Below, piece after piece: positions 12,109 through 52,503 of a stretch of 64,000 nt of DNA; the first letter of the stretch is position 1, and the number at the start of each line of letters is the position of its first letter. A program made the translations under genes and the position numbers. The DNA lies in the NCBI RefSeq assembly GCF_056746865.1, contig NZ_CM163382.1; one strand, given 5' to 3'. The notes under the pieces are model-generated. The model was not told where the DNA came from. It worked only from the letters and a program-made list of their open reading frames with translations, and made no database searches.

Positions 12109-12431
12109 TTTTTTGCACGCCCGTATTCAACGGCTTCTTTAAGGAGTTCATTTTCCATCGTTTTTTTGCCGAGCAGGCGCTGGAGTTCTTTAATCTGCTT
12201 CATGGCAGCAGCAAGTTCAGAGGCAGGAACGACCTGCTCTCCTGCGGCCACAGCAGTAAGACTTCCCTCCTGGTATTGCTTGCGCCAGAGAAATAACTGG
12301 CTGGCTGCCACACCGTGTTGCCGGGCAACAAGGGAGACCGTCATTCCCGGTTCAAAACTCTGCTGAACAATAGCGATCTTTTCCTGTGTAGTACGCCGTC
12401 TGCGTTTCTCCGGTCCTAAGACATCAATCAT
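12066..12431 (-). CDS. insC: IS2 OrfA (HTH protein)
   Basis: [25 protein letters not shown]...; 121 aa; overlaps insD as expected for the frameshift fusion. Confidence 0.9.
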
Positions 12432-12522
12432 CTGCTCTCCAATGACTAGTCTAAAAACTAGTATTAAGACTATCACTTATTTAAGTGATATTGGTTGTCT
12501 GGAGATTCAGGGGGCCAGTCTA

Positions 12523-13488
12523 ATTATAGGCACTTGCCATATGTAATATTGAGGTGTCAGGAGTTATTGCGATATAAGCATCTTTTATGATTGCTGCTGA
12601 ACGTTTAATCGAGGGTGATAAGGATAAACGGTAGACATTATTATAACAATCCACTAATACCCTGGCTTTATCTTCCCCTTTTGGTCCATGAACGATCACT
12701 ATTGGTATATCTGTTTCACTTTGAATTTTTGCTATTAGATTTTCTGCAATCGATAATGAAAATGTACGTTCCTGCGAGCTACCTTCTAAATTAAGCGCAA
12801 TGTAAGATCCTAACGATCGCATTTCCTCGCGCACCTCATCGAGTACATCCTCACTTAGTGGCAATTCATATATTGGCCTGACTGCTGGAAAACCCGCCTC
12901 ACGCATCATAAATGCCCATGTCATGGGTACAGGAGCCCGGAGATTCTGATCCATCCGGGACGCGTTCTTGCACAAAGGGGAGTAGCACTTCATGGTTAAA
13001 CCAACAACCTGAAAATTCGTTTTTGCTTTTAACTGACTGATAAATATCATCGTTTTCAGGTTCTTTTTACGCATCGCCTCTATACAAAGATCCGGCGTAC
13101 CGTATTGCTGTGTTATGTTCTTTGCTAAATCTTTTATTTCTTTTAATGTTGCGTGATCCTGCATAGTCATTGTGACTAATGTTAATTTAGTCTTTTCAAG
13201 TTTAAGTGCATTAAACACTTCTAAATTAATTGTCGACGTAACAATTAAAAGATGCTTAATTTTATGCAATTCAAGCGCCCGAATAACAGGAAAGATGGCC
13301 ATAGCATCGCCAATCTGGTCGGGAATATGGATAACAACAAACTCTGTTTTTTCAATATTAAAATTATAAGCTTTATAATCGTAGTAACTAAATGCAATAC
13401 GTCTCAACAATGATGCTAAAAACATACCTAACCTCGCCTCCCTACTGGTTATAATGCATTGCAGTCTATCAGACTCATCATGGCGCAA
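12523..13488 (-). pseudogene. yeeL: glycosyltransferase family 9 (heptosyltransferase-like) gene truncated at its 3' end by IS2
   Basis: ORF 12520..13488 runs into the IS2 end, which supplies the stop; remaining 3' codons continue in the same frame at 11037..11191. Confidence 0.7.
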
Positions 13489-21112: not shown

Positions 21113-22030
21113 TTAGCTCACCAATTGCCACTGCCTTTTTTCCATCACTGGAGAACTAATCACTGACATTAACAACTCTTTCACTGCCTGTGCCTGTGGC
21201 GATAAGTTCGCTCTGGCGGGTAAATTTAATGACAAAGAGAGACTCATGGAAGGAGTGGTAATGCGTGACATCCACCCATTTACTGCGCCACATAACGAAC
21301 GCGCGGCCGATTCGGGTAATACTGCAACGCCCATGCCGCTGGCAATCGCTGCGGTAAGCGTGGCAATAGACTCAATTTCACCAATAACTTTTGCCGTGAG
21401 TCGCCGTAGGGAAAAAGCCTCATCAACACGAAGTCTAATAGCACTGTAATCACTGGGGAGAAAGAGGTTCATTTGCGCAATAGCATTCACATCAACGCTT
21501 TGCCCCGGGCAATCTTGAGTTCCTACCAGAAAAAGATCTTCTTTCAGCAAAGCCTGACTGGATACACCAGCCACAGGGGAATGCTCATAAATCACCGCCA
21601 TATCGAGTTGGTGATTTATCAATTTTTCGTTAAGCACTGCACCACTATTTTCATGAAGATAGATAACGATCTCCGGAAATTCAGCGCGAACCGCCTGTAA
21701 TAAGGGCATGGTGATGGATGACGCAGCGGTTCCTGGTGCAAAGCCAATCGAGACTTGCCCCGATAATGCCTGACCAACGTTATGCACCGCCAGTTGGGCC
21801 TGTTCACACTGACGTAAAATGGCCCGCGCATGGGTATAGAGAATTTTTCCGGCGTCTGTTGGTGTAACGCCCCGCTTTGTACGGATCAAAAGTTGTTGAT
21901 TTAACTCACCTTCCAGTGTGGCAACCTGCTGGCTGAGCGCTGGTTGTGCGATATGCAATACTTCAGCAGCCTGGGTCAGGCTACCAATATCTACAATTTT
22001 TACGAAGTATTTCAGGCGTCTGAAGTTCAT
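21113..22030 (-). CDS. nac: nitrogen assimilation control protein (LysR family)
   Basis: ORF 21113..22060; start at MNFRRLKYFVKIVDIGSLTQAAE (ATG 22030); 305 aa. Confidence 0.88.
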   Translation of the reverse strand: MNFRRLKYFVKIVDIGSLTQAAEVLHIAQPALSQQVATLEGELNQQLLIRTKRGVTPTDAGKILYTHARAILRQCEQAQLAVHNVGQALSGQVSIGFAPGTAASSITMPLLQAVRAEFPEIVIYLHENSGAVLNEKLINHQLDMAVIYEHSPVAGVSSQALLKEDLFLVGTQDCPGQSVDVNAIAQMNLFLPSDYSAIRLRVDEAFSLRRLTAKVIGEIESIATLTAAIASGMGVAVLPESAARSLCGAVNGWMSRITTPSMSLSLSLNLPARANLSPQAQAVKELLMSVISSPVMEKRQWQLVS

Positions 22031-22366
22031 GTTGCCTCCGGTTTTTAAGAATCGGCCCAAGTGCCGCCATTACTTACAACCAGATTGCAAGATGCTTGCC
22101 AGTTTTATTTTGGTGTTGATGTACAAGCTAACCAACTGTCAAATAAGAGATTATGATAGATTCGTCATTGGCTCTTTTTATCTGCAGTCGCATTCACCTG
22201 CCCTATAAAAGGAGGGTATGCACCACGATGGTTCATTACCCAATAAGATTGAAAGCTCACCACTTTGTTGAAATTGGCAGCAAACAAACAAAAAAATGCA
22301 TTTCACCCTTTGACATCACCATGCACTGCCATTAATATGCGCCCCGTTCACACGATTCCTCTGTAG

Positions 22367-22442
22367 TTCAGTCGGTAGAACGGCGGACTGTTAATCCGTA
22401 TGTCACTGGTTCGAGTCCAGTCAGAGGAGCCAAATTCAAAAA
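22367..22442 (+). tRNA. asnV: tRNA-Asn (GUU)
   Basis: identical to asnT, including the 24 bp upstream (TAATATGCGCCCCGTTCACACGAT). Confidence 0.95.
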
Positions 22443-22449
22443 AGCCTGC

Positions 22450-22478
22450 TTTCGAGCAGGCTTTTTACTTTCTAATTA
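22450..22478. terminator. bidirectional terminator between asnV and ldtA
   Basis: AAAAGCCTGCT-TTCG-AGCAGGCTTTT hairpin with flanking T/A runs. Confidence 0.6.
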
Positions 22479-22487
22479 TCAACGCTC

Positions 22488-23420
22488 TTAAAACATCTGT
22501 CTTGAACCAGAACTAATTTGCACAGGCATTCCCGATCGACGTTGCAACGCAGCATTTGCGCGATTTACATCAACTTCTTGCCCGTTGATAAACGCCCGCA
22601 AAGATGGGGTTACCGGCAATGGCACTTTTCGGTCAGACTCATATTCTGCACGATTGCGCGACAGCGGCTCATGAACTTCCAGCCACTTTGAACCATCCGG
22701 TTCCGTTGTGTATTTCACTGGCTGATCAATAATTTGTACACGAGTGCCTACAGGAACATTATCAAACAGATATTTGATATCGTCATTACGCAGACGAATA
22801 CAGCCCTGACTTACACGGAGCCCAATACCAAAATTGGCATTGGTACCGTGGATGGCATACAACCTGCCAATATAAATCGCGTACAGCCCCATGGGGTTAT
22901 CGGGCCCCGCAGGAACAAATGCGGGCAAACTCTCCCCTCGTTTCGCATATTCGCGCCGGGTGTTCGGCGTTGGCGTCCAGGTTGGTGCTTCTTGTTTACG
23001 TTCAACGGTAGTCACCCAGTTACGCGGGGTTTCTCGCCCAGCCTGGCCGATACCAATAGGAAAGACTTCCACTGTATTACTGTCTGGCGGATAGTAATAA
23101 AGACGCATTTCAGCGACGTTAACCACAATCCCTTTACGAACAGTGGCGGGCAAAATCAGTTGCTGCGGAATGGTGAGTTGTGAGCCAGGCTTCGGCAAAA
23201 AAACATCAGCGCCCGGATTCGCTTCCAGCATATTACTTAACCCTTGCCCGTATTGTGCGGCAAAAGTCTCCAGCGGCTGAGTATTGTGATCAGGAACAGT
23301 TACAGTAAGCGACTGCCCCACTAAACGGCTACCCTCTGGAGGTAATGGATAAGTTACCGCCAGGCTATTTTGGCTGGCAAAAAGCAGAGCAAATGAGCAA
23401 AAAATATTTACACGACGCAT
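22488..23420 (-). CDS. ldtA: L,D-transpeptidase (YkuD domain)
   Basis: ORF 22488..23423; signal peptide [21 protein letters not shown]; catalytic region with GCIRL motif. Confidence 0.85.
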
Positions 23421-23484
23421 CATGTCCCTTTCCTAAGTCGCGAAAGCTATCCGTTAAGTATAGCTTTTATCAGACTTTTCGTTT

Positions 23485-24564
23485 TTAACTGTTCAAATCA
23501 GAAGTCGTATTCCCCGGTAGAACAATATTACTGGCAGCAAGTTCGCCCATGTTGTTATATATCGCACAGGCAGCTTCGATGATGGGCATCGCCAGAGCTG
23601 CGCCACTCCCCTCACCTAAACGCATCTCCATATTGAGATAAGGCTCCAGCCCCAAATGCGACAGCGCAATACGCGCCCCTTTTTCTGCCGACAGGTGAGA
23701 AGGAATGAGATACGGTTTGATTGCAGGAGACATCTGGCAGGCTGCGAGCGCGGCAGCATAAGAAAGAAATCCATCCAGCAACACGGGTAAACCGCAGGAA
23801 GCAGCGCCTAACATCACGCCAGCCATTCCGACCAAATCAAATCCACCCACTTTTGCCAGGACATCAACGCCATCCTGCGGATTTGGTTGATTCAACGTAA
23901 TCGCCCGGCGCACAACATCAATTTTATTAGCCAGTTTATCTGTCGGCAGGTTTGCGCCAATCCCAACCACTTCTTCAGGATCCCGGCCAGTGATTGTGCT
24001 GACTATTGCCGCTGCCGGTGTCGTGTTTGCCATCCCCAGTTCACCTACACCAAACAGCGTGACACCGTTTTTTGCCAGCTCCCGCGTATAACATATGACG
24101 TCCAAAAGCAACTTTTCAGCCTGACGGCGACTCATTGCCGGAGCTGAAGCAATATTGCCGCTACCTCGTGCGACACGCATGTTGATAAGCCCGGGGATAG
24201 GCTCAGCACTATCAATACCAACATCAACTACGTGGACGTTAGCGCCCGCTTGTGCTGCCAGCACACACACGCCGGTTGTTCCGCGGGTCATATTTTCAGC
24301 CTGAATGGCTGTCACTTCTTTTGGGGAAATAGCGACCCCTTCCTCCCAGACGCCGTGATCGGCACACATAACCAGTACCGCTTTTTTGCCCACATGCGGT
24401 ATGCCATTCAACCCCGGCATTCCCGCCAGTTGTATGGCAAGCGCCTCCAGCCTTCCCAGGCTACCAACAGGTTTGAGTAACCCGTCAATATGCCGTTGTG
24501 CACGCGACATAGCGGCAGGATCGATAGCAGGGATCGTATTCAGTAAATCGGCAAGTGTTTGCAT
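23485..24564 (-). CDS. cobT: nicotinate-nucleotide--dimethylbenzimidazole phosphoribosyltransferase
   Basis: 359-aa ORF; synteny with cobS/cobU. Confidence 0.88.
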
Positions 24565-24575
24565 GTCACGTCTCT

Positions 24576-25319
24576 TTATAGCAGTGCCAGCAGGAAGACC
24601 AGTTCACCAAGCTCTATAGCAGCTCCCAGCGTATCGCCGGTTTGCCCGCCCAGCGTACGTTTGAGAAGCTGACCGAGGATGAAAATCGCCACCATCGTCA
24701 CCACCATAGCAGCCACACCATGCATACCCGGCAATAATACGGCAGCAAAAATAGCGGCTAAGCCGAGTGTGACGCAGGTTTGTCGCCCATCAATTTTGCC
24801 AATGAACACATTGCCAAGCCCTTCTTCCCGCGCATAACGATGACGATACATCAATAATGCGGCAGTCCCGCGGCTGACCGCACATGCTGCCGCCAGCGAT
24901 GCAAGGATCGGTTCGCCACGCAGAGCCAACTCGCTTAATACCAGAATCTTTGCCAGTACAACAAAAATCAATGCCAGACCGCCATGGGTGCCTAAACGGC
25001 TATCACGCATGATTTCCAACATGCGATCGCGGCTACGTGCAGAAAATACGCCATCACAGGTATCGGCGAGGCCGTCCAGGTGGAATCCCCCGGTCATCAG
25101 CGCCAGCACAAGTACGCTAAACAGTGCCGCCAGTGGTACGCCACACCATGCCTGCAGCACCATGAAGACCAGCCCGCTAATCGCGCCAAGCAATAATCCA
25201 ATTAAAGGAAAAGTAATAATACCGCGAGAATAATGCTCGAAATCCAGTCCCTGGGACCAGCGACGCGGTACAGGCAGACGCGTAATAAATGAGAGCATCG
25301 CCCAAAATAATTTACTCAT
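24576..25319 (-). CDS. cobS: cobalamin 5'-phosphate synthase
   Basis: ORF 24576..25355; start at [11 protein letters not shown]; polytopic membrane protein; start overlaps cobU stop. Confidence 0.88.
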
Positions 25320-25861
25320 TTGATTTTTACTCCAATACCCGAAACCACCAGCCATACTTCATTTGCCGCAGCGGCCAACTGCTGATTTACCCGCCCGGCA
25401 ATATCACGAAAATGTCGTGCCAGACGACTCTCCGGCACAATCCCCATTCCCACTTCGTTAGTCACTAATACAACCTTTGCGGGGCAACGTTGGCAGGCAG
25501 CAATCAACGACTGAATCTCAGCATTAATCGCCTGTTCCATCGCCTGATAATCCCATTCATCAGGGTCTTTATCGCCGCCATAATCAAACAACAGATTAGT
25601 CACCATTGTGGTAACGCATTCCAGCAACACAACCTCATTCGGGTTAATGTCTGCATGAATTAATTCATCAAGATGTTGCCAGCGCTCCACTGTGCGCCAG
25701 TGCTCCGGGCGGCCTTGCCGATGATGTTCTATCCGTGCAGCCATCTCATCATCAAGGATTTGCGAGGTAGCGATATACAGAACCTGTGAAGAGTCCCCAA
25801 TAAGCGCCTCTGCGTGGCGACTCTTCCCGCTCCGTGCGCCCCCCGTCACCAAAATCATCAT
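25316..25861 (-). CDS. cobU: adenosylcobinamide kinase / adenosylcobinamide-phosphate guanylyltransferase
   Basis: 181-aa ORF with P-loop GGARSGKS. Confidence 0.9.
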
Positions 25862-27134
25862 ACCGACTCCTGATTCAAATGTATGATGGTATTCATTGAA
25901 CAGAACAATGGATCCCCCACCGTTGCTGACCGCAAAACATTTACGCGATTAATACTGCGCGTAATATAATTAAAAATCCAGCATTCTCAATCCATTACGA
26001 AATAAGATGGCATTACGGAATAGCCAGACTTTCTCGTGTTAACGTCCGACAAAATGTGTCATTGACAGCGGTTTCTGTGGATTGACACATTTCATTCAGA
26101 TAATGAATTAATGCTACTGCCGGACCAACCAGCAAACGGGCATTGTGTTCTGAAATCCAGGCTATTGATTCAACGTCAGCGACAGTTCTGCGCTGTAAAA
26201 GAACTTGTAAAACAACGCAATAGAATTATCCGGAATGGTGGCGACTATGCACTAGAACACCACAATTTCGCTCTCTCGGTAAGGCACTGTCACAGCATTC
26301 AACAGAATGTGACTTGCCAGATTTATTAGCGCCACCAGATGTTTAACCGGGTAACCACGACCCAGTCGGGGATATATTCCATCTTCTCGCTGACATCATC
26401 AAGAATAAAAAGGTTTATCACACTCAGAGCAACGTTCTTCAGCAGGCGGGATAATTCTTCAACATTTAAAAGATGTGTTATTAAAGGCATACAAACTGGA
26501 CGTATTGTATTTTCTTTTGGTGGTTGACCTAAGGTAGCAGTTTATCCTGATGCGCTGAGATTTCTGTAATATCTACGTCAACATTCTCCTCGAATAGAAA
26601 ATGCAGCCCCGGCAAGTGATTCACATTTTTTAACAAAACGTTGTTAGCGTGCCATTTTCAGAAGCTCTCCAAGAAAGCGAATTCTTTTCTCAAATTCTGC
26701 ATTCTCAGACACAGCTTTCTACTCCATGGCAATGGCCCAAATACGAAGTTGCTCAGGATCATTAGTGGTGCTGAGAAGTTAAATAACCATGCGGAGTACC
26801 ACTCGTCATCACGTATTTATATATCATGAAGCTATTGTTGTGTTTTGTACATCAGTAGATGTATTCTGATATACTCCTTTTGCTAGACATAACCTTTCAC
26901 CTGCTTGCAAAGCTTCTGTGTTCTGACATTGCCAAATTGTTGCAATTCTGTATCCAGCCTTCTTTCAGTCATAGCTTCGGGCCGCGATAAGACTCACTGA
27001 TCTGACCCTGATTCCTCTTGCAGACTTTATAGACCAATTAAAATGCAGTTTCTGCAGGTCAACGTCTGACCATCATTGTCATCACTCTGGCCATTAGAGT
27101 AACCTTCTGCATTCATCCTTTTGTAAAAAGTTTA

Positions 27135-27590
27135 TAGACTGGCCCCCTGAATCTCCAGACAACCAATATCACTTAAATAAGTGATAGTCCTGATACAAGT
27201 TTTTAGAGTAGTCATTAGTGAACAGATAATTGTTAACTTAGAACCAGTAAAATGCAAACGACGCACCACGCTGGGAAAATCGCTGCTATTCAGCAGAGTT
27301 TTGTACCGAGAATTGTGGCCAGCCACTTATTGCTCTCGCGTAAGCAGGTATCCCCATCGTTTACCAGTCCAGCACATCTTGTGGTCAGGCAGAAGAAGAG
27401 CAAACTGTTACTGGACTCACTGCATGCATGGTGGAGAAAAATGCCACGCTATCCAAAAATCCAGACTGGGAGAATGGTTCAGCTGTGTACTGAATCAGTG
27501 GGGCGCACTCTGTTATTACAGTGTTGACGGTCAGGCGGAGGCAGACATAATGCCGCGGAAAAAGCCCTTTGTGCCATCTGTCTCGGAAAT
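27135..27590 (+). mobile_element. IS2-group (IS3 family) left-end remnant
   Basis: first ~55 bp (TAGACTGGCCCCCTGAATCTCCAGACAACCAATATCACTTAAATAAGTGATAGTC) nearly identical to the IS2 end at 12468..12522, then a diverged OrfA-like reading frame. Confidence 0.55.
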
Positions 27591-41599: not shown

Positions 41600-43154
41600 G
41601 AGGTGTCCACCTGCAAAATAAGTGGGTGCTTAAGTTACAGGATCCTGGATTCGGGACCAGACGGTACTCAGACGACGCTTACAGAGAATGTCCGGAATGA
41701 CGAGGTTATCTTTGCGGAGATTAAGGCAATGGTATACGGGCCGACGTTCCATGCCGCGTTACTACATTCAGCCCGGACGTAAAATGCGCCCGTCAAAAAG
41801 AACGGTTCGCTTCGAAACTCAGCCAGGATACCACCTCTCCGCCACACCCGGGAAGAAGTTGATATGGTGGTTGCCGGACAACAGCGCTCCTGGATTGACT
41901 GCTGCATCACTCAACCACGCTGAATATCAAAGGAGAGCGTTACCGGTTAAAAGAGAAACGTAAAGCTGTGGTGATGACCCAAAACGCAACGCCTGTCAGT
42001 GAGGATGAAATGGTGAAAAGCGGACAGCATCAGTAACGGAAGTATCTTAGCGGGTACGAAAATGGCAGGATCGTGACATTGACAGAATATCTCCTGATCA
42101 TCCTGAATGACTGCAGTTGCTGTAGAAAAGTAAGCTGTCTCCACCCACGGCACCACTTAACAGGCATTCCGTAACTTCCCCCAGACTTACTATGACGCAT
42201 TATCGGTGCACTGAAAACGGGAGAGTGCGCTTAAAACCGCAGACCGCATGCGGGTGTTACTGCATGACAGTCTGGCCGTATTGTGAGATGTCGGCAGGAA
42301 CCGATGTCCGCGCAGGGGGGAACTTCCTGCAGTACCTGACGCTTCAAATGGTATTAACCGTAGGGTGTTGTTGGTTCCGGATCGCGGAAATGGGAGCACA
42401 GGTCTGCTACGGGGTGTACCTCTGACAGTATATCCGGCTCGCTCATCTGACAGCCTCTCTCCCGGAAAAGACCAAAAATGAGATCGTCTCCTCAACAGCA
42501 GAGAAGAGGTCTTGACAGACAGGCTATATTGCATACGATTTATGAAGAAAAAGACAGCAAATATGGAGGTTATAGCGGAGAATACCCTACGAAATTCCTA
42601 TGAAAAACGATTGAAAAAAATATCAAATTCGATTCGTTTTTATATGCTTTTTGGGAGCGTGGCGATGACGAACTGTTGCATGTGCAGAGGAGAATGCACC
42701 CGGAAGCACCAGAATCATCCAGAAAGGCAGAACGATTACGCATCAAACCAGGAGACAGCAATATCAAGGTAATATACTGATTTAAAATGAATTTACAGCA
42801 ATACGTGAAAACATTTTTTACTTAAAGGAGACAGATGCGCTGAAGAGAGTGCAAGTATTTTTATATAAAAATGAGAAGTTTACGGGATGTATATCCGGCA
42901 CACTATGACCGGAGAATATCAGTCAAGCTTAAAAAGACAATAAATACAGTGAGTTAAATACACAGAGAAAACGTAGTATCAGAGGGTACATCTTACAACA
43001 GAGACTGAATTTCCGGTTTTTCATAACCGGCGCATTCCGGAAAGTGCAGGCGGCCCGGAGGTTTTCTGACGCCACTACCTGGTAGATTGTTCTGTACATC
43101 ATGTACGGAGGTTTTTGTTTGCTTTTTTAAAATCTGCAAATGTGAGAAAAGCAG

Positions 43155-44318
43155 GTGAGGTGTATTGTGGGAAAGGAACTGGATGATATCTGCACCAGCT
43201 GTCCGTATATCGATGCTGTAAAACGGCACAAACAACAGCTCGGTGCCATAGAGGAATATACACAGTGGTTAAAAAAAGAACCACGGGCATCTTATTTTTT
43301 TCTGTTCCAGCTGTATACCCGCATTCACAATACATTTTTCTCCCAAAAGCAACAACTCCCGTTCACTCCCGGTGGCACTCACTGCCCGGAACCTGATGTC
43401 ACCCTTCGGGACTTAACGCTTTCCCCTGGCTACCACAGTGATTATGCCCCTCAACCCATTCCGGAGATGGACAGTTCTGCTGTTGTTCCCCCAACTAATG
43501 AAAACACCTCGCCTCCGGAAGATACTCCCGACAACACTCCGGCCGGAGGCAATACCGGACAAGCGGAAAAGACCAGAAACGCAGGACTCACACCCATTCC
43601 TGAAAAACGTTCAGGAATGCCCCCGGAACATCTGCGGTTTGCCACGGGGTTTCCATCGCAACCGAAGATTGCCGGTCCCAGAGAAAAGCCGATGCGCACC
43701 GTGCATCCGGATAAAATCTACCGTGAAATTATATGGTTCTGCTCCAGTTACCTGCTGAAATCCGGACCAGAGGCTACGAGGACGATTATCAACTCAGTAT
43801 TCTCTGAATGGGCCAGCATAAACAATGATTACCCCTCCCCCTTTTCGTGGGTGGACAGCAGGGACAGTGAACAGTGTGACTGGTTATGGAACGCCATGCA
43901 GGTCCGGTGTGTGGGAACCCCGCTGAATCCCCTTACCCCGGAGCAGAAATACTGGTTTGCCTGCGCCACGTTTGATAACTGGGAGGGCTGGAATGAGCAA
44001 CAGGTACAGTTTTTACTGGAAAGTAATCCCAGACGGAACAGAGCGAAGTTTACGCAGGTCTCCTTCCAGGCCCCCAGGATTCAGCATAAAGCGATTCTTC
44101 TTGATGAGCTGAAAAGTGCCCGGGAGCAACAAAAAAGGCGTGATGAACGTGCTGATGGTTCCGTCCCTCTGAAACTGTCCGGAAAAATCCACAAACAGCT
44201 TGAAAGTATTGCCCGAAGTCGTGGTGTCCTCCCAAAAAAACTGCTGAATGAAATGATTGAGCAGGCGTACCATGATTTGGTGGCAACCAGGCAGAACAGC
44301 CAAATCGATTCCAGATAA
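43155..44318 (+). CDS. hypothetical protein with a Pro/Thr-rich central linker
   Basis: 387-aa ORF; start uncertain (GTG 43155 or 43167); no recognised domain. Confidence 0.5.
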   Translation: MRCIVGKELDDICTSCPYIDAVKRHKQQLGAIEEYTQWLKKEPRASYFFLFQLYTRIHNTFFSQKQQLPFTPGGTHCPEPDVTLRDLTLSPGYHSDYAPQPIPEMDSSAVVPPTNENTSPPEDTPDNTPAGGNTGQAEKTRNAGLTPIPEKRSGMPPEHLRFATGFPSQPKIAGPREKPMRTVHPDKIYREIIWFCSSYLLKSGPEATRTIINSVFSEWASINNDYPSPFSWVDSRDSEQCDWLWNAMQVRCVGTPLNPLTPEQKYWFACATFDNWEGWNEQQVQFLLESNPRRNRAKFTQVSFQAPRIQHKAILLDELKSAREQQKRRDERADGSVPLKLSGKIHKQLESIARSRGVLPKKLLNEMIEQAYHDLVATRQNSQIDSR

Positions 44319-44839
44319 TTTCAGACAGATATTATTTCCGTGAATCCCCCGCCACCTTTCCGGTGCGCGGGGTTTTGTCTTTTTTCACCGGGAATACATG
44401 TATGAATCCGTCTGATGCCATTGAGGCAATTGAAAAACCGCTCTCCTCCCTGCCTTACTCACTTTCCCGTCACATCCTGGAACATCTGCGCAAACTCACC
44501 AGTCACGAACCCGTGCCTGGCATTATGGGTAAAAGCGGGGCCGGTAAATCCTCACTCTGTAATGCGCTGTTTCAGGGGGAGGTCACCCCGGTCAGTGATG
44601 TTCACGCCGGCCCCCGGGAAGTGCAGCGCTTCCGTCTTGCAAAATGGCATCTGAATCGATCGCAGTTTGGCATTCGAATCGATCATGATTTGGCATCCAT
44701 CTCCGATCACAGTTTGGCATCACAATCGATCACGATTTGGCATGCTTCCGATCATTGATTGGCATCCTGCCAGTCACTCCGGGAATTAACTCTTTTCACC
44801 ACAGTCTCCATTGCCGTGTTTAAACCAGTGGAGACGTCA

Positions 44840-46405
44840 ATGTCCAGAAAGAGAAAATCCAGGAGCACTATGGAAACCTGTTTTAAGATTCTTCAGCTCA
44901 AGTTCGACAAGAAGCTGACTAACCGTTGTATCGGACTGACGTTACACATCAGCGCCTCAACCGTTTTTGAGGTTCTTGCCCGCTTCAAAGCCTCTTCTCT
45001 GTCATGGCCATTACCTGCTGATATATCCCATGACACGCTGGAGAAACTCATTTTTCCGCCCAAAGACACCTTTGCATCAGAGCTTGTAATGCCTGACATG
45101 TTGTACCTCGATACGGAAATGAGAAAACCAGGTGTGACGCGGCAACTGTTGTGGATGGAATACAAGGCACAGGCGGGTAACAAAGCGATGGGATACTCGC
45201 ACTTCTGCCGTTGCTACCGGGAGTGGAAAAAAACGCGACGTCTCTCCATGCGCCAGGAGCATCGTGCCGGCGAAAAGCTTTTTATCGACTTCTGTGGTCC
45301 TACGGTTCCTGTTATTAATCCGGACACCGGTGAGATACGCCGCGTGGCAATCTTCGTGGCCGTAATGGGGGCGTCCAACTATACCTACGTTGAAGCGTGC
45401 GAAGGTCAGGACATGATGTCATGGTTAAATGCCCACAGCCGTTGCCTGACCTTCCTGGGCGGCGTACCGAAGCTGCTCATCCCCGATAACCTCAGAAGCG
45501 CAGTGAAAAAGGCCGATCGATATGAGCCTGTCATCAACGACAGTTATCAGGCACTGGCTGAGCACTATGGCACGGTTATCATCCCGGCCCGACCACGCAA
45601 ACCTAAAGATAAACCAAAAGCAGAAAACGGCGTCCTCATCGTCGAACGATGGCTTCTTGCCCGCATCCGTAATGAAACCTTCCACACGCTCAGGGCGCTG
45701 AATGCGCGCCTTAGGGAGTTACTGACAGACATGAATAACCGGCCAATGAAGGGGTACGGCAATCAAACCCGTGCAGAACGCTTCCGCATACTGGATGCGC
45801 CAGCACTCTCTCCGCTGCCTCTGGCACCTTATGAATACACGGAATACAAAGCTGTGAAGGTTGGCCCTGACTACCACGTTGAATATGCCCGTCACTGGTA
45901 CTCCGTTCCACACGAACTGGTCGGTCAGCGTCTGTCACTGAAGGCGGGGCAGTCGGTGGTACAGCTCTGGCACAAGGGGCAGTGTGTGGCGCAACATCCG
46001 CGCAGCACACATGAATATAAACACACAACCAATCCGCTTCACATGCCAGAGCGCCACCGGCAGCACGGGACATGGACACCGGAACGCCTGATCGAGCAGG
46101 GAAAACGTACGGGCCCGTCCACAGGCCGGGTGGTTGAATCCATGCTGAAGGCAAAACCCCATCCGGAACTGGCTTATCGTGCAGTTCTGGGGCTGCTGGC
46201 ACTTCAGAAAAAATACGGCCCGGAACGGCTGGAAAAGGCCTGTTACGTTGCCCTGCACTATAACGCCCCTGACAGACGCTTTATCGACAATCTGCTGCGT
46301 CACCATCGGGAGAACCTGGAGCTTCCATTATCCCGCCAGGGCGAACAACATCCGGCATATGCTTCAGAGCATGAAAACCTGCGTGGTCCGGGCTACTACC
46401 ACTGA
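44840..46405 (+). CDS. istA: IS21-family transposase IstA
   Basis: ORF 44759..46405; start placed at MSRKRKS (44840), uncertain. Confidence 0.8.
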   Translation: MSRKRKSRSTMETCFKILQLKFDKKLTNRCIGLTLHISASTVFEVLARFKASSLSWPLPADISHDTLEKLIFPPKDTFASELVMPDMLYLDTEMRKPGVTRQLLWMEYKAQAGNKAMGYSHFCRCYREWKKTRRLSMRQEHRAGEKLFIDFCGPTVPVINPDTGEIRRVAIFVAVMGASNYTYVEACEGQDMMSWLNAHSRCLTFLGGVPKLLIPDNLRSAVKKADRYEPVINDSYQALAEHYGTVIIPARPRKPKDKPKAENGVLIVERWLLARIRNETFHTLRALNARLRELLTDMNNRPMKGYGNQTRAERFRILDAPALSPLPLAPYEYTEYKAVKVGPDYHVEYARHWYSVPHELVGQRLSLKAGQSVVQLWHKGQCVAQHPRSTHEYKHTTNPLHMPERHRQHGTWTPERLIEQGKRTGPSTGRVVESMLKAKPHPELAYRAVLGLLALQKKYGPERLEKACYVALHYNAPDRRFIDNLLRHHRENLELPLSRQGEQHPAYASEHENLRGPGYYH

Positions 46406-46421
46406 CAGAAGGAACAACAGT

Positions 46422-47177
46422 ATGAGTGATAACCTGTTAAACAAACTGACCCAACTGAAACTCCCGGCGATGGCCGGGAGCCTGATACGGCAGCGGGAAA
46501 CGCCTCAGACCTACGACGAACTGTCGTTCGAGGAAAGGCTGACGCTGCTGGTTGATGACGAGCTTCTGAGCAGGGAAAACAGCCGTGTGGCACGGTTGAG
46601 AAAAAATGCCGGCCTGAAATACCAGGCAACACCGGAAGGGCTGCGCTATCCGGCCTCAAGAGGTCTGCGGGCTGAACAGATGAGAGAACTGCTGAACGGC
46701 CACTACATAACCCACAGGAAAAACCTGCTGATAACCGGTCCGACAGGATGTGGCAAGAGCTGGATAGCCAATGCGCTGGGCGAACAGGCATGTCGACAGA
46801 AACACAGCGTCCGGTACTGTAGAACCGGGCGATTACTGGAACAACTGGCTCAGGGACGTGTTGATGGCAGCTGGCTGAAATATCTGAAACAGTTGCAAAA
46901 AATACAGGTTCTAATCCTGGACGATCTGGGGCTGGAACAGTTAAGTAACGCCCAGTGTAATGACCTTCTGGAGCTCATAGAGGATCGTTACGGACAAAGC
47001 AGCACGATAGTGGTAAGCCAGTTCCCGGTAGATAAATGGCATGGTCTGATGGAGAACCCAACAACAGCAGATGCCATCCTGGACAGACTGGTACATAACT
47101 CACACCGGGTGGTCCTTCAGGGAGAGTCACTGAGGAAAAATCCCCCGGTAGTGGAAAGCAGCGAAAAAACGCGTTAA
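46422..47177 (+). CDS. istB: IS21-family ATP-binding helper IstB
   Basis: start ATG 46422 (MSDNLLNKL); Walker A GPTGCGKS; DExx-like LILDDLG. Confidence 0.85.
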   Translation: MSDNLLNKLTQLKLPAMAGSLIRQRETPQTYDELSFEERLTLLVDDELLSRENSRVARLRKNAGLKYQATPEGLRYPASRGLRAEQMRELLNGHYITHRKNLLITGPTGCGKSWIANALGEQACRQKHSVRYCRTGRLLEQLAQGRVDGSWLKYLKQLQKIQVLILDDLGLEQLSNAQCNDLLELIEDRYGQSSTIVVSQFPVDKWHGLMENPTTADAILDRLVHNSHRVVLQGESLRKNPPVVESSEKTR

Positions 47178-48038
47178 AAAGCGGTAGAAAAAGTTAAGTT
47201 CCCGGTTGATCGAATGGATGCGAATCGCTGATCGGACTTCGATGCCAATCCGTGATCGAATAGAGCGGAATACGCATCCGTCTGAATGGCCATGGTCACA
47301 GCATGGTTATCACTGACCTGCCCGGGGTGGGCGAGAGCCGGGACAGGGATGCAGAGTATGAAGCCCTGTACCGTGACATTCTGCTCGAACTGGACCTGGT
47401 ACTGTGGCTGATTAAAGCCGATGACCGTGCCCTGTCTGTGGATGAGTATTTCTGGCGACACATCCTGCACCGGGGACATCAGCGGGTACTGTTTGTGGTG
47501 ATGCAGGCCGATAAAACGGAGCCCTGCCATGAATGGGATATGGCCGGTATTCAGCCTTCTCCCGCACAGGCACAGAACATTCGCGAAAAAACGGAGGCGG
47601 TATTCCGTCTGTTCCGGCCCGTACATCGGGTTGTTGCCGTATCGGCCCGCACCGGCTGGGAACTGGATACGCTGGTCAGTGCGCTCATGACAGCACTTCC
47701 CGACCATGCCGCCAGTCCCCTGATGACCCGCCTGCAGGACGAGCTGCGCACGGAGTCTGTCCGGTCTCAGGCCCGTGAACAGTTTACCGGTGCGGTGGAC
47801 CGGATATTTGACACGGCGGAGAGCGTCTGCATTGCCTCTGTTGCACGCACGGTTCTGCGCGCCGTCCGTGACTCGGTGGTCTCTGTTGCCCGCGCGGTAT
47901 GGAACTGGATTTTCTTCTGAACCCGGTGGTGATGTACCAGGCTGTTGTTACAGATTTTTAACTCCATGAAAACACTATGCAAACGCAGCCATACCCGGGT
48001 TGTCCCCTTGCGTTGTGTTTCTCAAGTTAATAGAATAC

Positions 48039-48080
48039 ATCGATCGTTACTATCATATCGATCGTTATAAACGATCGTTT
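48039..48080 (+). promoter_or_regulatory. three operator-like repeats with palindromic CGATCG cores upstream of the dynamin-like gene
   Basis: ATCGATCGTTA at 48039 and 48057, AACGATCGTTT at 48070; AGGAAGG RBS at 48124..48130. Confidence 0.45.
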
Positions 48081-48137
48081 GTAGTAAATGACCTCCTCCG
48101 TGGTTGTCATGAAAATGCGTCTTAGGAAGGTTAAATA

Positions 48138-50534
48138 ATGCACGAAAAGAACATCGCCCTGCTTTGTGATGAAGCCGACCGACTTTTGCAACTGAACATT
48201 AATCTGCTCCGGCAAATGGTTGAGGAGCCAGATGTGTTATCTGACAGTAAGAACGAAAACAGACTGCTTTTTGATAAACAGAAAGCACTGAAAAGAATTG
48301 AGGAGCTGGAGGGCGAACAAATCAAAACCGCCCGCAGGGAGATGGTGCTGGCTGTTGTCGGCACGATGAAAGCAGGCAAATCAACCACCATCAACGCCAT
48401 TGTGGGGCAGGAAATTCTGCCTAACCGTAACCGCCCCATGACCTCTGTACCGACGCTCATCCGCCACGTTCCCGGAAAAACTGAGCCGGTTCTCCATCTG
48501 GAACATATTCAGCCTGTCCGCAATTTATTAATCACACTGCAGGAAAAACTCGCCACCCCGGCAGGACAGCAGGTCGCACAGACCCTGCAGCAAACCGGGG
48601 ATACCCGCGAACTGCTGGATATTCTGACGGATGATGGCTGGCTCAAAAATGAATACCACGGGGAGGAGGAAATCTTTACCGGACTGGCATCGTTAAACGA
48701 TCTGGTTCGTCTTGCTGCGGCAATGGGGACTGAATTTCCTTTTGATGAATACGCAGAAGTGCAGAAACTGCCGGTGATCGACGTGGAATTCAGCCATCTG
48801 GTGGGGATGGATGCATGCCAGGGAACACTCACACTGCTGGATACCCCCGGCCCTAATGAGGCCGGACAACCGCAGATGGAAGTGATGATGCGGGATCAAC
48901 TGCAGAAAGCCTCTGCGGTTCTGGCTGTGATGGATTACACCCAGATGAACTCAAAAGCGGATGAAGACGTCCGTAAAGAGCTTAATGCCATTGCTGACGT
49001 ATCAGCCGGCCGCCTGTTTGTACTGGTCAATAAATTTGATGAGAAAGACCGCAATGGCGATGGGGCAGATGCCGTACGCCAGAAAGTTCCGGCAATGCTG
49101 AACAGCGATGTGCTGCCCGCCTCCCGCGTTTATCCCGGATCCTCACGCCAGGCATACCTGGCTAACCGTGCGCTTCATGAGTTACGGAAAAACGGAACCC
49201 TTCCTGTTGATGAAGCCTGGGTCGATGATTTTATCAGAGGTGCCTTCGGTTGCATGAAAAAAGAATACGTCTGTAAAGACAGTGAACTGGCAACTGAAGG
49301 GGCGACAGACCTGTGGGAAGGCTCACTTATCGATCAACTGATAACGGAAGTCATACAGAGCTCACATTCCAGAGCTGCGGCACTGGCGGTTGACTCTGCC
49401 GCCGCAAAACTGATGCAGAATGCAGAAAATATCAGTGAATACCTGTTGTTACGCCATCAGGGGCTACAGCAAAGCATTCAGTCACTGCAGTCGCATATCA
49501 CCAGCCTGCTTGCGGATATCCGGGAAATCGCGGACTGTCAGGAGCAGATGACCACTGATGTCAGAATGGCCATGGAGGAGATCGATACTAAAACCCGGGA
49601 ATTACTGACGGGGGTCTGCACCTCACTGGAAGAGGAGCTGAATGACTATTTCAGAAGCGGTAAACGCAAAGAACAGCAAATGCTGGAGGAAGAAGACGCA
49701 GAACAACGAAGGTCTCAGTCCGGATTATGGGGGAAAATTTCTCAATGGTCCGGTATCAACAACCAGGGCCGGGAGGATTACAGGAAACGAGATTTTGCCC
49801 CGGACAGCCCCGAAATAAAATTCAGTGATCGCAGGGAAGCCCTTGAACTGATGACGCAAATCGAATCGACCGTGACCAGCCTGCACCGTGAGGCTGAAGC
49901 ACAGTTCCGGCCTGAGCTGGAGAAAATCGTCAGCGGGATTGAAACAGGTTTTCGTGGCACGGCCCTGTACGCCACAGAAAACATTGCCGGTCGCATCAAT
50001 GCCCGCCTGGAGGATGAGGGCTTTACCGTAAAAATCAGTTTTCCGGCAGTCAGCCAGTTACAGACCCGGCTCGCGGTAAAAATAAATCTGAGTGCGCTTA
50101 TGGAGGAAAGAACGGAGACCGTCACCCGTCGCCGTCGGCAGAGTGGCGTATGGGGAACCGTTTGTCGATGGTTTGGCACCAGTGACCTGGGCTGGGAAAA
50201 CTATGACGAGGATGTGAGTCGCAGCGTGATCAATATCAACAAGGTCAGAGAGGAAGTTATGTCACTGACCCGGGCATATTTCGGGGAGCTGCAGGCATCC
50301 ATTGAGCAGGATATTAACCAGCCCGTCCGCCAGGAAATCGATGCCTTTTTCTGCGCATTCAGGGAGAAAGTTGAACAACTGCGTAACACGCTGATTCAGA
50401 GCTCTGAAGATCATAAACGCGATCAGCAGGCGCAGGAACGGCTTACCGGGCGACTTCAGGCATTAAATGAAAGGGTTCCTGAGCTCATTACTGACAGTAA
50501 GGCGCTGAGGGAAGAGCTGGAGACAATGCTGTGA
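48138..50534 (+). CDS. dynamin-like GTPase (bacterial dynamin-like protein)
   Basis: 798 aa; G1 GTMKAGKSTTINAIVG, G3 LLDTPGPNE, G4 VLVNKFD; long helical C-terminal half. Confidence 0.85.
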   Translation: MHEKNIALLCDEADRLLQLNINLLRQMVEEPDVLSDSKNENRLLFDKQKALKRIEELEGEQIKTARREMVLAVVGTMKAGKSTTINAIVGQEILPNRNRPMTSVPTLIRHVPGKTEPVLHLEHIQPVRNLLITLQEKLATPAGQQVAQTLQQTGDTRELLDILTDDGWLKNEYHGEEEIFTGLASLNDLVRLAAAMGTEFPFDEYAEVQKLPVIDVEFSHLVGMDACQGTLTLLDTPGPNEAGQPQMEVMMRDQLQKASAVLAVMDYTQMNSKADEDVRKELNAIADVSAGRLFVLVNKFDEKDRNGDGADAVRQKVPAMLNSDVLPASRVYPGSSRQAYLANRALHELRKNGTLPVDEAWVDDFIRGAFGCMKKEYVCKDSELATEGATDLWEGSLIDQLITEVIQSSHSRAAALAVDSAAAKLMQNAENISEYLLLRHQGLQQSIQSLQSHITSLLADIREIADCQEQMTTDVRMAMEEIDTKTRELLTGVCTSLEEELNDYFRSGKRKEQQMLEEEDAEQRRSQSGLWGKISQWSGINNQGREDYRKRDFAPDSPEIKFSDRREALELMTQIESTVTSLHREAEAQFRPELEKIVSGIETGFRGTALYATENIAGRINARLEDEGFTVKISFPAVSQLQTRLAVKINLSALMEERTETVTRRRRQSGVWGTVCRWFGTSDLGWENYDEDVSRSVININKVREEVMSLTRAYFGELQASIEQDINQPVRQEIDAFFCAFREKVEQLRNTLIQSSEDHKRDQQAQERLTGRLQALNERVPELITDSKALREELETML

Positions 50535-51436
50535 CTTCACCATTTATTCAACAAATTGCTGATAACCGGGTATGTCAGGTACTCACCTGTCTTCCTGAAA
50601 AATTTGTGGTTGATTTCGCAAACGGAATCGATGTTGCACAGGAGCATATCCGCACGGCCGGAGAGCGCACGTTCTTCCGGCGTTTAAAAGAGGGGCTGAC
50701 CGGCGAAGGCGCTGCACGGCAGAATGCCATCAATGCGTCGCTTGCACAGGGCGTTGAGGCGTCCCTGCGCTGGCTGACGGAGATGACAACGTCACTTGCC
50801 ACCACAAACTACGCGATTACCCGGGTAAACGACAGGGTCAGTTCACTGGTCAGTGATACAGCCAGGCTGGCGCATTATTCCGCAGATACGCGGGAGCAGT
50901 TACTCACCCTGGCCGATCAGGTTCACCATAAACTGAATCATCTTGAAGAAAAACTCCACCGTGTTGACCAGGTTCAGCGGGCGCAGTTACATCTTGAGCA
51001 GATATTCTCATGGTGGAGCGCCGGGCGATATGCGTCATTTTCCCCTGCCGGACGTTGTTATGTGGCACTTGAAGAGCTTCGCTGGGGCGCGTTTGGTGAT
51101 GTGATACGTCAGAGCGAAACAGGCCAGGTTAACCAGCTACTGGATATTCTCAGACATAAAGCATTAACGCAGATGGCACAGGAGAGTGGCGGTAGTGCAA
51201 CCGTGCGTCTGAACACTCTGGACTGGCTTGGTGGTCAGGGCCGGGAGCAGGCAGATAACGAGTGGCATGACGCGATTAACTGGCTGGGAGACTGGTGCAG
51301 TGAAGAGCAGCATCCGGTGATCTGGTCAACCACGCAGGCTGCAGAACACTTACCGGTTCGCATGCCTCGCCTCTGCTCTGCAGAACGCCTCTCTGAAAGT
51401 ATGGTCGATGAAATATTTCAGAAGGGGGCTGCATGA
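50531..51436 (+). CDS. hypothetical helical protein translationally coupled to the dynamin-like GTPase
   Basis: 301 aa; GTG start overlaps upstream TGA (GTGA at 50531..50534); no recognised motif. Confidence 0.65.
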   Translation: MTSPFIQQIADNRVCQVLTCLPEKFVVDFANGIDVAQEHIRTAGERTFFRRLKEGLTGEGAARQNAINASLAQGVEASLRWLTEMTTSLATTNYAITRVNDRVSSLVSDTARLAHYSADTREQLLTLADQVHHKLNHLEEKLHRVDQVQRAQLHLEQIFSWWSAGRYASFSPAGRCYVALEELRWGAFGDVIRQSETGQVNQLLDILRHKALTQMAQESGGSATVRLNTLDWLGGQGREQADNEWHDAINWLGDWCSEEQHPVIWSTTQAAEHLPVRMPRLCSAERLSESMVDEIFQKGAA

Positions 51437-52503
51437 GTACAGAAATGAAAACGGGGCTGGTGCTGTCCGGTGGCGGGGCGGTGGGCGCTTATCAGGCGGG
51501 AGTGGTTAAGGCACTGGCAGAGTGTGGTACACAGATCAGCATGGTTTCAGGGGCCAGCATTGGCGCATTCAATGGTGCCATTATCGCGGCCTCTCCCGAT
51601 CTGTCAGAAGCTGCCGTACGCCTGGAGGCGCTCTGGGATCATCTGGGGAATAATCAGGTGCTGTCGGTAAACAGATTGGTTTACTTTTCATTGCTGAAAA
51701 AATTGTTCCAGGCAATGAACCTCTGCCAGATCCCCGGACGTGCAGGAGCACTGCTTACGACGCTTCTTCGCCATATATCGACAATCAACGGGTTTGACAA
51801 TCTGATGGCTCAGCCGTTGTTGTCAGATGAGCCCCTGACAGCGCTGATGGATCATTATCTTGATACTGATGCTCTGGCAGACGGGCTACCGCTGTATGTG
51901 TCGCTGTACCCCACAGAAGGGGGCATGCAGGATATTATTGACTGCATTCGTGCTGAACTGGGTGTCGGAACCACGAAAAACGCCGTTTTTCAGCATATCC
52001 AGAGCCTGCCCCGCGGACAGCAGAAAGAGGCTCTGCTTGCGTCAGCCGCGCTGCCCCTGCTGTTCCGTCCCCGTGAGGTTCAGGGGACAATGTTCGGTGA
52101 TGGTGGTATGGGAGGATGGCGAAATATGCAGGGAAATACCCCTGTGACGCCTCTGGTCGATGCCGGATGCAATATGGTGATTGTGACGCATCTGAGTGAG
52201 GGTTCTTTATGGGATCGCCAGGCTTTTCCGGACACCACAATCCTTGAGATCCGTCCCCGGAAAAGGCTGAAATATGCAGGTGATGGTGGCAACAGCGGCG
52301 GTCTGCTCAGTTTTACATCGGCACATACCGACGCCTGGCGTCAGCAGGGCTATGAAGACACGATGCTGGCGATGGAGCATATCCGGAAACCGCTGGCAGC
52401 ACGTCAGGCACTGACCCGGTCAGAGGCGGTATTGCAGAAAAGCCTGGATATAACGGAAGAGGCAGATTTGGCACTGAGAAACGCGATGGCCCGGATTAAA
52501 TAA
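51433..52503 (+). CDS. patatin-like phospholipase
   Basis: 356 aa; GGGAVGAYQAG oxyanion motif, GASIGA (GxSxG) nucleophile, DGG catalytic Asp; ATGA overlap with the upstream gene. Confidence 0.85.
   Translation: MSTEMKTGLVLSGGGAVGAYQAGVVKALAECGTQISMVSGASIGAFNGAIIAASPDLSEAAVRLEALWDHLGNNQVLSVNRLVYFSLLKKLFQAMNLCQIPGRAGALLTTLLRHISTINGFDNLMAQPLLSDEPLTALMDHYLDTDALADGLPLYVSLYPTEGGMQDIIDCIRAELGVGTTKNAVFQHIQSLPRGQQKEALLASAALPLLFRPREVQGTMFGDGGMGGWRNMQGNTPVTPLVDAGCNMVIVTHLSEGSLWDRQAFPDTTILEIRPRKRLKYAGDGGNSGGLLSFTSAHTDAWRQQGYEDTMLAMEHIRKPLAARQALTRSEAVLQKSLDITEEADLALRNAMARIK

Follow-up and report, generated by a model that had tools for sequence, protein, structure and literature searches.

The 64-kb stretch of an Escherichia coli chromosome analysed here (the window) holds two fragments of a GTPase gene with a mobile element between them, ahead of an operon encoding a dynamin-like protein and a patatin-like phospholipase. 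This arrangement raises the question of how the gene came to be broken, how recently this happened, and whether the break matters to the genes behind it. We are close to certain that a copy of the insertion sequence ISSso4 transposed into codon 79 of a yeeP-type GTPase gene in a CP4-44-type island of this chromosome.

The 5' fragment of the GTPase gene (44402-44637, + strand) comprises codons 1-78 and two nucleotides of codon 79, and the 3' fragment (47284-47920, + strand, 637 nt) runs from the last nucleotide of that codon to the stop codon, with the break falling between CT and G of a leucine codon. Joining the two in silico gives 873 nt with an open frame of 290 codons. An earlier note on this DNA had described a clean split with the frame resuming after the duplication, and had made this depend on the joined halves forming a continuous reading frame; excision of the element restores exactly such a frame. 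Together with its flanks (1,354 nt), the joined sequence is found at 100% identity, over its full length and in one piece, in many E. coli chromosomes, where the matched empty sites carry an intact 'GTPase family protein' annotation. The restored protein is identical at 290/290 residues to the annotated GTPase WP_001069811.1. For annotation, this means that the two GTPase fragments should be corrected to one interrupted gene.

The restored protein matches the GTPase domain model PF01926 (MMR_HSR1) with 49 bits (cut-off 21.9) and has G1, G3 and G4-like motifs, with the P-loop GKSGAGKS (residues 43-50) encoded in the 5' fragment and DLPG (residues 90-93) and QADK (residues 153-156) in the 3' fragment. 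Because the split parts G1 from the DxxG and xKxD motifs, the GTPase is probably inactivated, and we infer that its activity would be lost. As it stands, the frame of the 5' fragment continues for 39 more codons into the element and stops at 44758; the predicted product is thus 118 aa long, and its last 39 residues would come from the insertion sequence. The first in-frame ATG of the 3' fragment lies at 47303.

The naming of the gene as yeeP-type in the earlier note is borne out by both sequence and position. Over the 556 nt that survive of the K-12 yeeP pseudogene (b1999, in CP4-44), the restored gene is 96.2% identical at the nucleotide level, and it occupies the same island position beside cobU. 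Window positions 22022-27179 match a region of O145:H28 strain RM13514 that holds nac, tRNA-Asn, ldtA and cobTSU, and positions 26097-27136 align with the start of K-12 CP4-44. Sequence and chromosomal position thus make the gene a positional orthologue of yeeP, which in K-12 sits in the CP4-44 island next to cobU. The damage in K-12 is of another kind: there yeeP has lost its 5' end, with no insertion sequence interrupting it. Its K-12 paralogue yfjP, in CP4-57, encodes a protein that is 49% identical end to end to the restored GTPase (287 and 290 aa, respectively; E = 4e-93), in an alignment that is collinear over the full length and unbroken at the junction. The neighbourhoods differ in the gene that follows, which is flu (Ag43) in K-12 and the dynamin-like/RdcB-like/patatin operon in the window.

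The element itself spans 44638-47276 (+ strand, 2,639 bp, with TG...CA tips) and is ISSso4 or an isoform of it. It is flanked by perfect copies of TCCGTCT at 44631-44637 and 47277-47283, and the match extends no further in either direction; for two given positions, agreement over 7 nt has a chance probability of 1 in 16,384. The left copy also belongs to the empty site, and the 100%-identical empty sites in other genomes set the duplication at this gene at 7 bp and prove it to be a duplication, as had been claimed. Duplications in the IS21 family range from 4 to 8 bp. We also considered a 6-bp duplication with a chance seventh base, using element boundaries fixed from ten other copies, and rejected it: 7 bp is the one length that recreates both the empty site and the frame. 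Among those ten copies the duplication was 6 bp in six, 5 bp in one and 4 bp in two. A length of 7 bp is therefore atypical for this insertion sequence, which elsewhere mostly duplicates 6 bp, yet it lies inside the family range, and a variable duplication length of 4-7 bp is now documented for this element.

The left terminal region (44638-44765, + strand) carries five 17-nt units, starting at 44657, 44680, 44704, 44727 and 44749, with the consensus CGATCAnnGwTTGGCAT, and the right terminal region (47218-47276, - strand) carries two inverted units at 47242-47258 and 47218-47234, which begin 19 and 43 nt from the tip. The start-to-start spacing at the left end (20-nt repeat family) is 23/24/23/22 bp. 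The earlier note had reported several copies of TTTGGCAT at the ends of the element. Multi-unit termini are indeed present at both ends, but exact TTTGGCAT is confined to the left one, where it occurs four times (44666, 44689, 44713 and 44736) out of a total of seven on the + strand of the window; at the right end TTGGCAT occurs inverted, once exactly (47242) and once in degenerate form. Elements of the IS21 family have an L1/L2 and R1/R2 end architecture with 23-bp spacing (PMC10122671). The units seen here, 22-24 bp apart, fit this description, and the 17-nt units of the left end are presumed to be IstA binding sites.

Between the termini lie istA (44840-46405, + strand; 521 aa from ATG 44840) and, starting 16 nt past its stop codon on the same strand, istB (46422-47177; 251 aa, WP_001282653.1), which encodes an AAA+ helper ATPase. 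PGAP places the istA start at ATG 44870, giving a protein of 511 aa (WP_023181050.1) under the generic name 'IS21 family transposase'; both ATG codons are accompanied by a Shine-Dalgarno sequence. IstA was assessed as a DDE transposase, a type that combines an HTH, an integrase core and a Mu-transposase-like C-terminal domain, and it scored 285.7 bits against NF033546 (transpos_IS21; cut-off 160), 72.1 bits against PF22483 and 32.1 bits against PF00665 (rve), the last slightly below its cut-off of 32.6. IstB scored 257.8 bits against NF038214 (cut-off 200) and 205.7 bits against PF01695. Together with the TG...CA tips and the repeat units 22-24 bp apart, the curated IstA and IstB models place the element in the IS21 family, as proposed. 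The two genes were also said to be intact, and the element has no mismatches to eight copies in which both are annotated as such. The experimentally studied IS21 and IS5376 share the order istA then istB, the terminal CA, ends made of repeated units about 23 bp apart and a short target duplication. The present element differs from them in being larger (2.6 kb), in having five rather than two left-end units, and in its 7-bp duplication, compared with 5 bp for IS5376 in vitro (PMC10122671).

ISSso4 is an IS21-family element first named in Shigella sonnei. Our use of the name rests on the PGAP label of IstB WP_001282653.1 ('ISSso4 family helper ATPase') and on the published annotation of a copy in the E. 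coli plasmid pCT, which was named ISSso4 in PMC6361801. Aligned over 2,639 bp, the pCT copy and the window element show seven mismatches and no gaps (99.7% identity). The two share length and tips; the duplication of 7 bp differs from the length of mostly 6 bp at other copies. Many E. coli chromosomes and plasmids carry copies that match the window element at 100% over positions 1-2639. The eight copies mentioned above lie in unrelated contexts (a TPR-protein gene, fimE, a DUF932 gene, IS100 istB, others, or plasmids), each with a duplication of its own. Copies that cover 80% or more of the element occur in 225 complete E. coli genomes, at up to 34 places per genome, and 503 plasmid records match it, 373 of them conjugative, from Escherichia, Salmonella, Shigella and Klebsiella. 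ISSso4 is a known and currently mobile insertion sequence of Enterobacterales.

The insertion had been proposed to be recent, and the identical copies elsewhere, the perfect duplication and the 100% empty sites agree with this. When the left junction (44338-44937) was used as a query against 5,426 complete genomes, no place was covered to 80% or more. The best matches reached only 3-16 nt into the flank, with a length that differed from record to record. With the element excised, the surrounding 21.36 kb differs from strain e1-39, which lacks the insertion, by two mismatches and three gaps (99.98% identity). Because the junction occurs in 0/5,426 genomes and 21 kb around it is nearly identical to an insertion-free strain, the insertion is a very recent event, private to one lineage among the genomes searched.

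We found no evidence against insertion of the element, and weighed whether the junction could have arisen in another way, either through import of an interrupted allele by homologous recombination or through an assembly that wrongly placed a copy at this site. Recombination is frequent in island DNA, and the element is multi-copy in many genomes, where such repeats can mislead assemblers. Set against this, a perfect duplication with exact restoration of the reading frame is the signature of transposition rather than of a mis-join, the searched genomes contain no donor with the same junction, and the window holds a single copy of the element. Import or artefact is accordingly extremely improbable. 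For transposition, what is known of the family suggests a sequence of steps: IstA would bind the 17-nt repeats of each end and bring the two ends together, IstB-ATP would load onto the target DNA and then recruit IstA, the terminal CA-3'OH ends would attack the target with a 7-nt stagger, and gap repair would produce the TCCGTCT duplication.

We then considered what lies downstream. The operon (48138-52503, + strand) encodes a dynamin-like GTPase similar to CrfC/RdcA (48138-50534), a YjcZ/RdcB-family protein (50531-51436) and a patatin-like phospholipase (51433-52503), all on the + strand. Identification of the first product as CrfC/RdcA proper was rejected at 556 bits against NF007368, and since this is far under the cut-off of 1,146 we regard the protein as a paralogue and not an equivalog. 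Nor were the yeeP-type GTPase and the operon assigned to an anti-phage defence system, as PADLOC returned weak, partial matches alone (LeoBC, 22.8 and 19.8 bits; phospholipase effector, 19.8 bits). The module is present over at least 80% of its length in 1,974 of 5,426 complete E. coli genomes (~36%).

The 217-nt intergenic region in front of the operon (47921-48137, + strand) is homologous to the regulatory region of K-12 agn43 (flu), whose phase variation through Dam and OxyR is summarised in PMC3764049. It contains a candidate -35 (TTGCGT, 48008-48013), a candidate -10 (TAGAAT, 48031-48036) and GATC sites at 48042, 48060 and 48073, all three inside a candidate OxyR site at the putative promoter (48039-48075). 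This site matches the OxyR consensus at 16/20 positions, a score reached by 0/500 shuffles, compared with 14/20 at K-12 agn43. The TAGAAT -10 and the three GATC sites are common to both loci, whereas the GATC spacing is 18/13 bp in the window and 19/13 bp in K-12. The two also differ in that the window region precedes the dynamin-like operon and not the Ag43 autotransporter, and in a leader about 130 nt shorter than that of agn43. Among versions of the module that are 93-95% identical to the query, the -10 and the three GATC sites are invariant. No Rfam family was found at E <= 1 in 43000-49000, and our literature search for a link between yeeP and dynamin, or for a dynamin/patatin operon controlled by Dam and OxyR, returned nothing relevant.

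The earlier note had placed the element immediately upstream of this operon and suggested that it may supply or disrupt its transcriptional input. The element is indeed adjacent and co-oriented, but its right tip lies 861 bp from the dynamin-like start codon (48138), with the 637-nt 3' GTPase fragment and the 217-nt intergenic region in between. Read-through from istAB or an outward hybrid promoter could in principle drive or perturb the operon, for example by overriding an OFF state, and the shared orientation would allow this, as would the result of our terminator search: on the + strand from the istB stop (47177) to the intergenic region no intrinsic-terminator-like site was found, the sole such site being a hairpin of two GATC sites of the putative switch, with a weak T-run (48059-48077). 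Against this stand the distance, a consensus scan that found no sigma-70-like outward or hybrid promoter at or near the right end of the element, and a promoter region whose key positions are conserved in diverged copies. A regulatory role for the insertion is therefore unlikely. Because the operon has this agn43-homologous region of its own, it is probably independent of transcription through the GTPase gene. Most likely the operon retains the agn43-type promoter in front of it, and disruption of its input by the element appears unlikely from the sequence. We infer a neutral or mild effect, in which the operon may at most gain some read-through from istAB.

A further possibility is that the GTPase/dynamin-like module is costly and that knock-outs by insertion sequences recur as they are advantageous. 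Damage to the module is seen elsewhere: an IS3-family element interrupts the dynamin-like gene of O145:H28 RM13514, the same IS21-family element has entered the dynamin-like gene of KMi025 and duplicated 5 bp there, an IS66-family element falls under the module match in EC15, the GTPase gene is frameshifted in SMN013SH2, and yeeP is 5'-truncated in K-12. However, the module persists in ~36% of the genomes, and when its carriers were sampled at even spacing nearly all had it in one unbroken piece, while sporadic decay is expected of cryptic-prophage genes and this insertion sequence inserts widely. Selection for disruption is quite unlikely on this balance. Similarly improbable is a model in which the GTPase is a working partner of a dynamin-like/RdcB-like/patatin module made phase-variable by an agn43-type Dam/OxyR switch, the independent hits by insertion sequences (in the GTPase gene here, and in the dynamin-like gene of two other strains) are selected losses of function, and istAB read-through partly overrides the OFF state in this strain.

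The insertion is thus an ordinary knock-out, of a kind already known from many genomes. It represents one more hit by a common, active insertion sequence in a cryptic-prophage gene, within a CP4-44-type island that has been struck repeatedly by such elements, and its chief use is as a strain marker. Of greater interest than the insertion itself is its context, in which a widespread accessory operon lies directly behind a candidate agn43-type Dam/OxyR switch. If that switch is functional, the operon would constitute a phase-variable relative of the RdcA/RdcB c-di-GMP input system that has so far gone undescribed.

The direct repeat TCCGTCT that the earlier note placed at both ends of the element (44631-44637 and 47277-47283) was confirmed by reading the sequence and by script, and the match goes no further on either side. 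The DNA between the two copies is 2,639 bp long, starting with TGCAAAATGG and ending with GGAATACGCA. The GTPase gene runs from the ATG at 44402 to the stop codon at 47918-47920; its codon 79 is broken after the CT at the end of the left TCCGTCT, and the G at 47284, the first base past the right copy, completes it to CTG. As had been claimed, the frame resumes after the duplication, such that 44402-44637 joined to 47284-47920 gives 873 nt (290 aa) with no stop. We excised the element in silico together with one repeat copy, and the 1,354-nt sequence that remained, flanks included, was used to query 5,426 complete E. coli genomes. The excised sequence was recovered at 100% identity, over its full length and in a single piece, in many chromosomes, where it is annotated as an intact 'GTPase family protein'; the joined protein is identical at 290/290 residues to WP_001069811.1, annotated in O145:H28 RM13514. 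These uninterrupted matches are empty sites, and they set the inserted DNA at 2,646 bp. Eight other copies of the IS, retrieved with their flanks, showed 0 mismatches across 44638-47276 and unrelated DNA directly outside. Because these copies fix the borders of the element, the IS measures 2,639 bp and the duplication exactly 7 bp. Genes cut by other copies include a TPR-protein gene, fimE, a DUF932 gene and the istB of IS100, and the remaining copies retrieved adjoin or sit within other chromosomal and plasmid genes. On the whole, the analysis confirms what the earlier note observed and supports its interpretation.

Both proteins of the element are of the IS21 type. IstA (521 aa from 44840, or 511 aa from 44870 according to PGAP) scored 285.7 bits on the NCBIfam model 'IS21 family transposase' (cut-off 160) and also carries Mu-transposase C-terminal and integrase-core domains, and IstB (46422-47177) matched both 'IS21-like element helper ATPase IstB' (257.8 bits; cut-off 200) and PF01695 (205.7 bits). 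The in-frame ATGs of istA at 44840 and 44870 are separated by 10 codons, and both are preceded by a Shine-Dalgarno sequence (AGGAG at the second, GGAG at the first). In IS21 itself, two such starts give rise to the transposase and a slightly shorter 'cointegrase'. The left end contains five 17-nt units, CGATCAnnGwTTGGCAT, whose starts lie 20, 43, 67, 90 and 112 nt in from the tip; at the right end there are two inverted units, with starts 19 and 43 nt in from that tip. The TTTGGCAT repeats described previously at the IS ends form the core of this unit, but the exact motif occurs at the left end only. These ends agree with the architecture of the IS21 family, in which multiple direct repeats (L1/L2, R1/R2) are spaced about 23 bp apart and the reactive terminus is CA (PMC10122671).

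PGAP labels IstB 'ISSso4 family', and the IS of plasmid pCT, which is listed as ISSso4 (PMC6361801), is equal in length to the window element and differs from it at 7 positions. Some match to the element was found in 1,775 of the 5,426 complete E. coli genomes; 225 of these have a copy that covers 80% or more of it, and there are up to 34 matching places in one genome. Matches were also found in 503 plasmid records, mostly of conjugative plasmids from Escherichia, Salmonella, Shigella and Klebsiella, and the element is evidently widespread and active. Of ten other copies, six carry a 6-bp duplication, one a 5-bp and two a 4-bp duplication; since most gave 6 bp, the 7-bp duplication in the window is real yet unusual for this IS. 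The hexamer GTATCC was duplicated at two unrelated sites, in the TPR-protein and DUF932 genes, and resembles the opposite strand of the right tip, GGAATACGCA, which hints at a target preference. On the + strand of the 64-kb window, TCCGTCT occurs four times, always in the GTPase gene (44407, 44631, 47604 and the duplicate at 47277). The three natural copies in 873 nt compare with about 0.05 expected, and two of them encode Phe-Arg-Leu by the same codons.

The insertion had also been called recent, and this view was borne out. Many copies elsewhere are identical to this IS, its two flanking repeats match perfectly, and the empty sites show 100% identity. The left junction was covered in none of the complete E. 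coli genomes searched, and once the element is excised, the surrounding 21.36 kb shows 2 mismatches and 3 gaps relative to strain e1-39. All these lines of evidence argue for a very recent insertion.

The joined halves do form one yeeP-type GTPase, with 49% end-to-end identity to K-12 YfjP, an alignment unbroken at the junction and a Pfam match to the MMR_HSR1 GTPase domain. Over its 3' 556 nt, the gene shares 96.2% identity with the K-12 yeeP pseudogene. The window, O145:H28 and K-12 share the arrangement of nac, tRNA-Asn, ldtA and cobTSU (22022-27179 of the window) followed by the border of a CP4-44-type island; given this shared position beside cobTSU, the gene is the positional orthologue of yeeP. 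Upstream of the island (1564-22432) lie four tRNA-Asn genes (2645, 18124, 19948 and 22357) and one tRNA-Ser, and a 1,331-bp stretch at 11192-12522 is 95.8% identical to K-12 IS2F. As the insertion parts the P-loop (residues 43-50) from DLPG (90-93) and QADK (153-156), loss of GTPase function is expected. Only 15 nt separate the end of a terminator-like hairpin with a T-run (44358-44386) from the start codon, and a promoter of the gene's own has no obvious space there. Transcription may reach the gene by read-through from an upstream 387-aa ORF (43155-44318), which had no match in Pfam, NCBIfam or PADLOC.

The co-oriented operon downstream encodes a dynamin-like protein (48138-50534; a CrfC/RdcA paralogue scoring under the equivalog cut-off), a YjcZ/RdcB-family protein (50531-51436) and a patatin-like phospholipase (51433-52503). 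Its start codon lies 861 bp from the IS tip, and a consensus scan returned no promoter at the right end of the IS and no convincing terminator past istB. Read-through from the IS into the operon is possible. That the IS removes the operon's transcriptional input is unlikely; the operon most likely has a switchable promoter of its own, because the 217-nt intergenic region (47921-48137) shares homology with the yeeP-flu region of K-12, the agn43 switch, and its features are invariant in diverged copies. Both regions share a TAGAAT -10 (48031-48036), which in K-12 ends 6 nt ahead of the annotated 5' end of isrC, the flu leader, and three GATC sites (48042, 48060 and 48073) at almost the K-12 spacing. 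An OxyR consensus match at 48039-48075 agrees at 16/20 positions, compared with 14 for the K-12 site, and 0/500 shuffles reached 16. Neither TAGAAT nor any of the three GATC sites varies among copies taken from versions of the module that are 93-95% identical overall to the query. In agn43, such an arrangement of GATC sites, OxyR site and promoter results in Dam/OxyR phase variation (PMC3764049).

Lesions of this module occur independently in other strains: an IS3-family element within the dynamin-like gene of O145:H28 (11620-12831 of record L001), the same IS21-family element in that gene of KMi025 with a 5-bp duplication, GTAAA (17011-19649 of L010; window equivalent about 49664), an IS66-family element beneath the module match in EC15 (H123) and a frameshifted GTPase gene in SMN013SH2 (1-845 of L017). 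In 1,974 genomes at least 80% of the module is present, and sampling at even intervals showed it to be nearly always uninterrupted; sporadic decay is the simpler reading of these lesions. In O157:H7 AC-5 (1-1510 of L018), the operon lies 110 nt directly 3' of cah, a calcium-binding Ag43 homologue, and upstream of the dynamin-like start codon only about 10 nt are homologous to the window. This start of homology near the dynamin-like gene suggests that the cargo region between the GTPase and DUF932 genes is mosaic, the window type having the putative switch joined directly to the dynamin-like gene. Our literature search found no paper on an agn43-type Dam/OxyR switch before a dynamin-like/RdcB-like/patatin operon. 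The kind of insertion event and the element are already known, and the sole item deserving separate attention is the probable agn43-type switch ahead of the dynamin-like operon.
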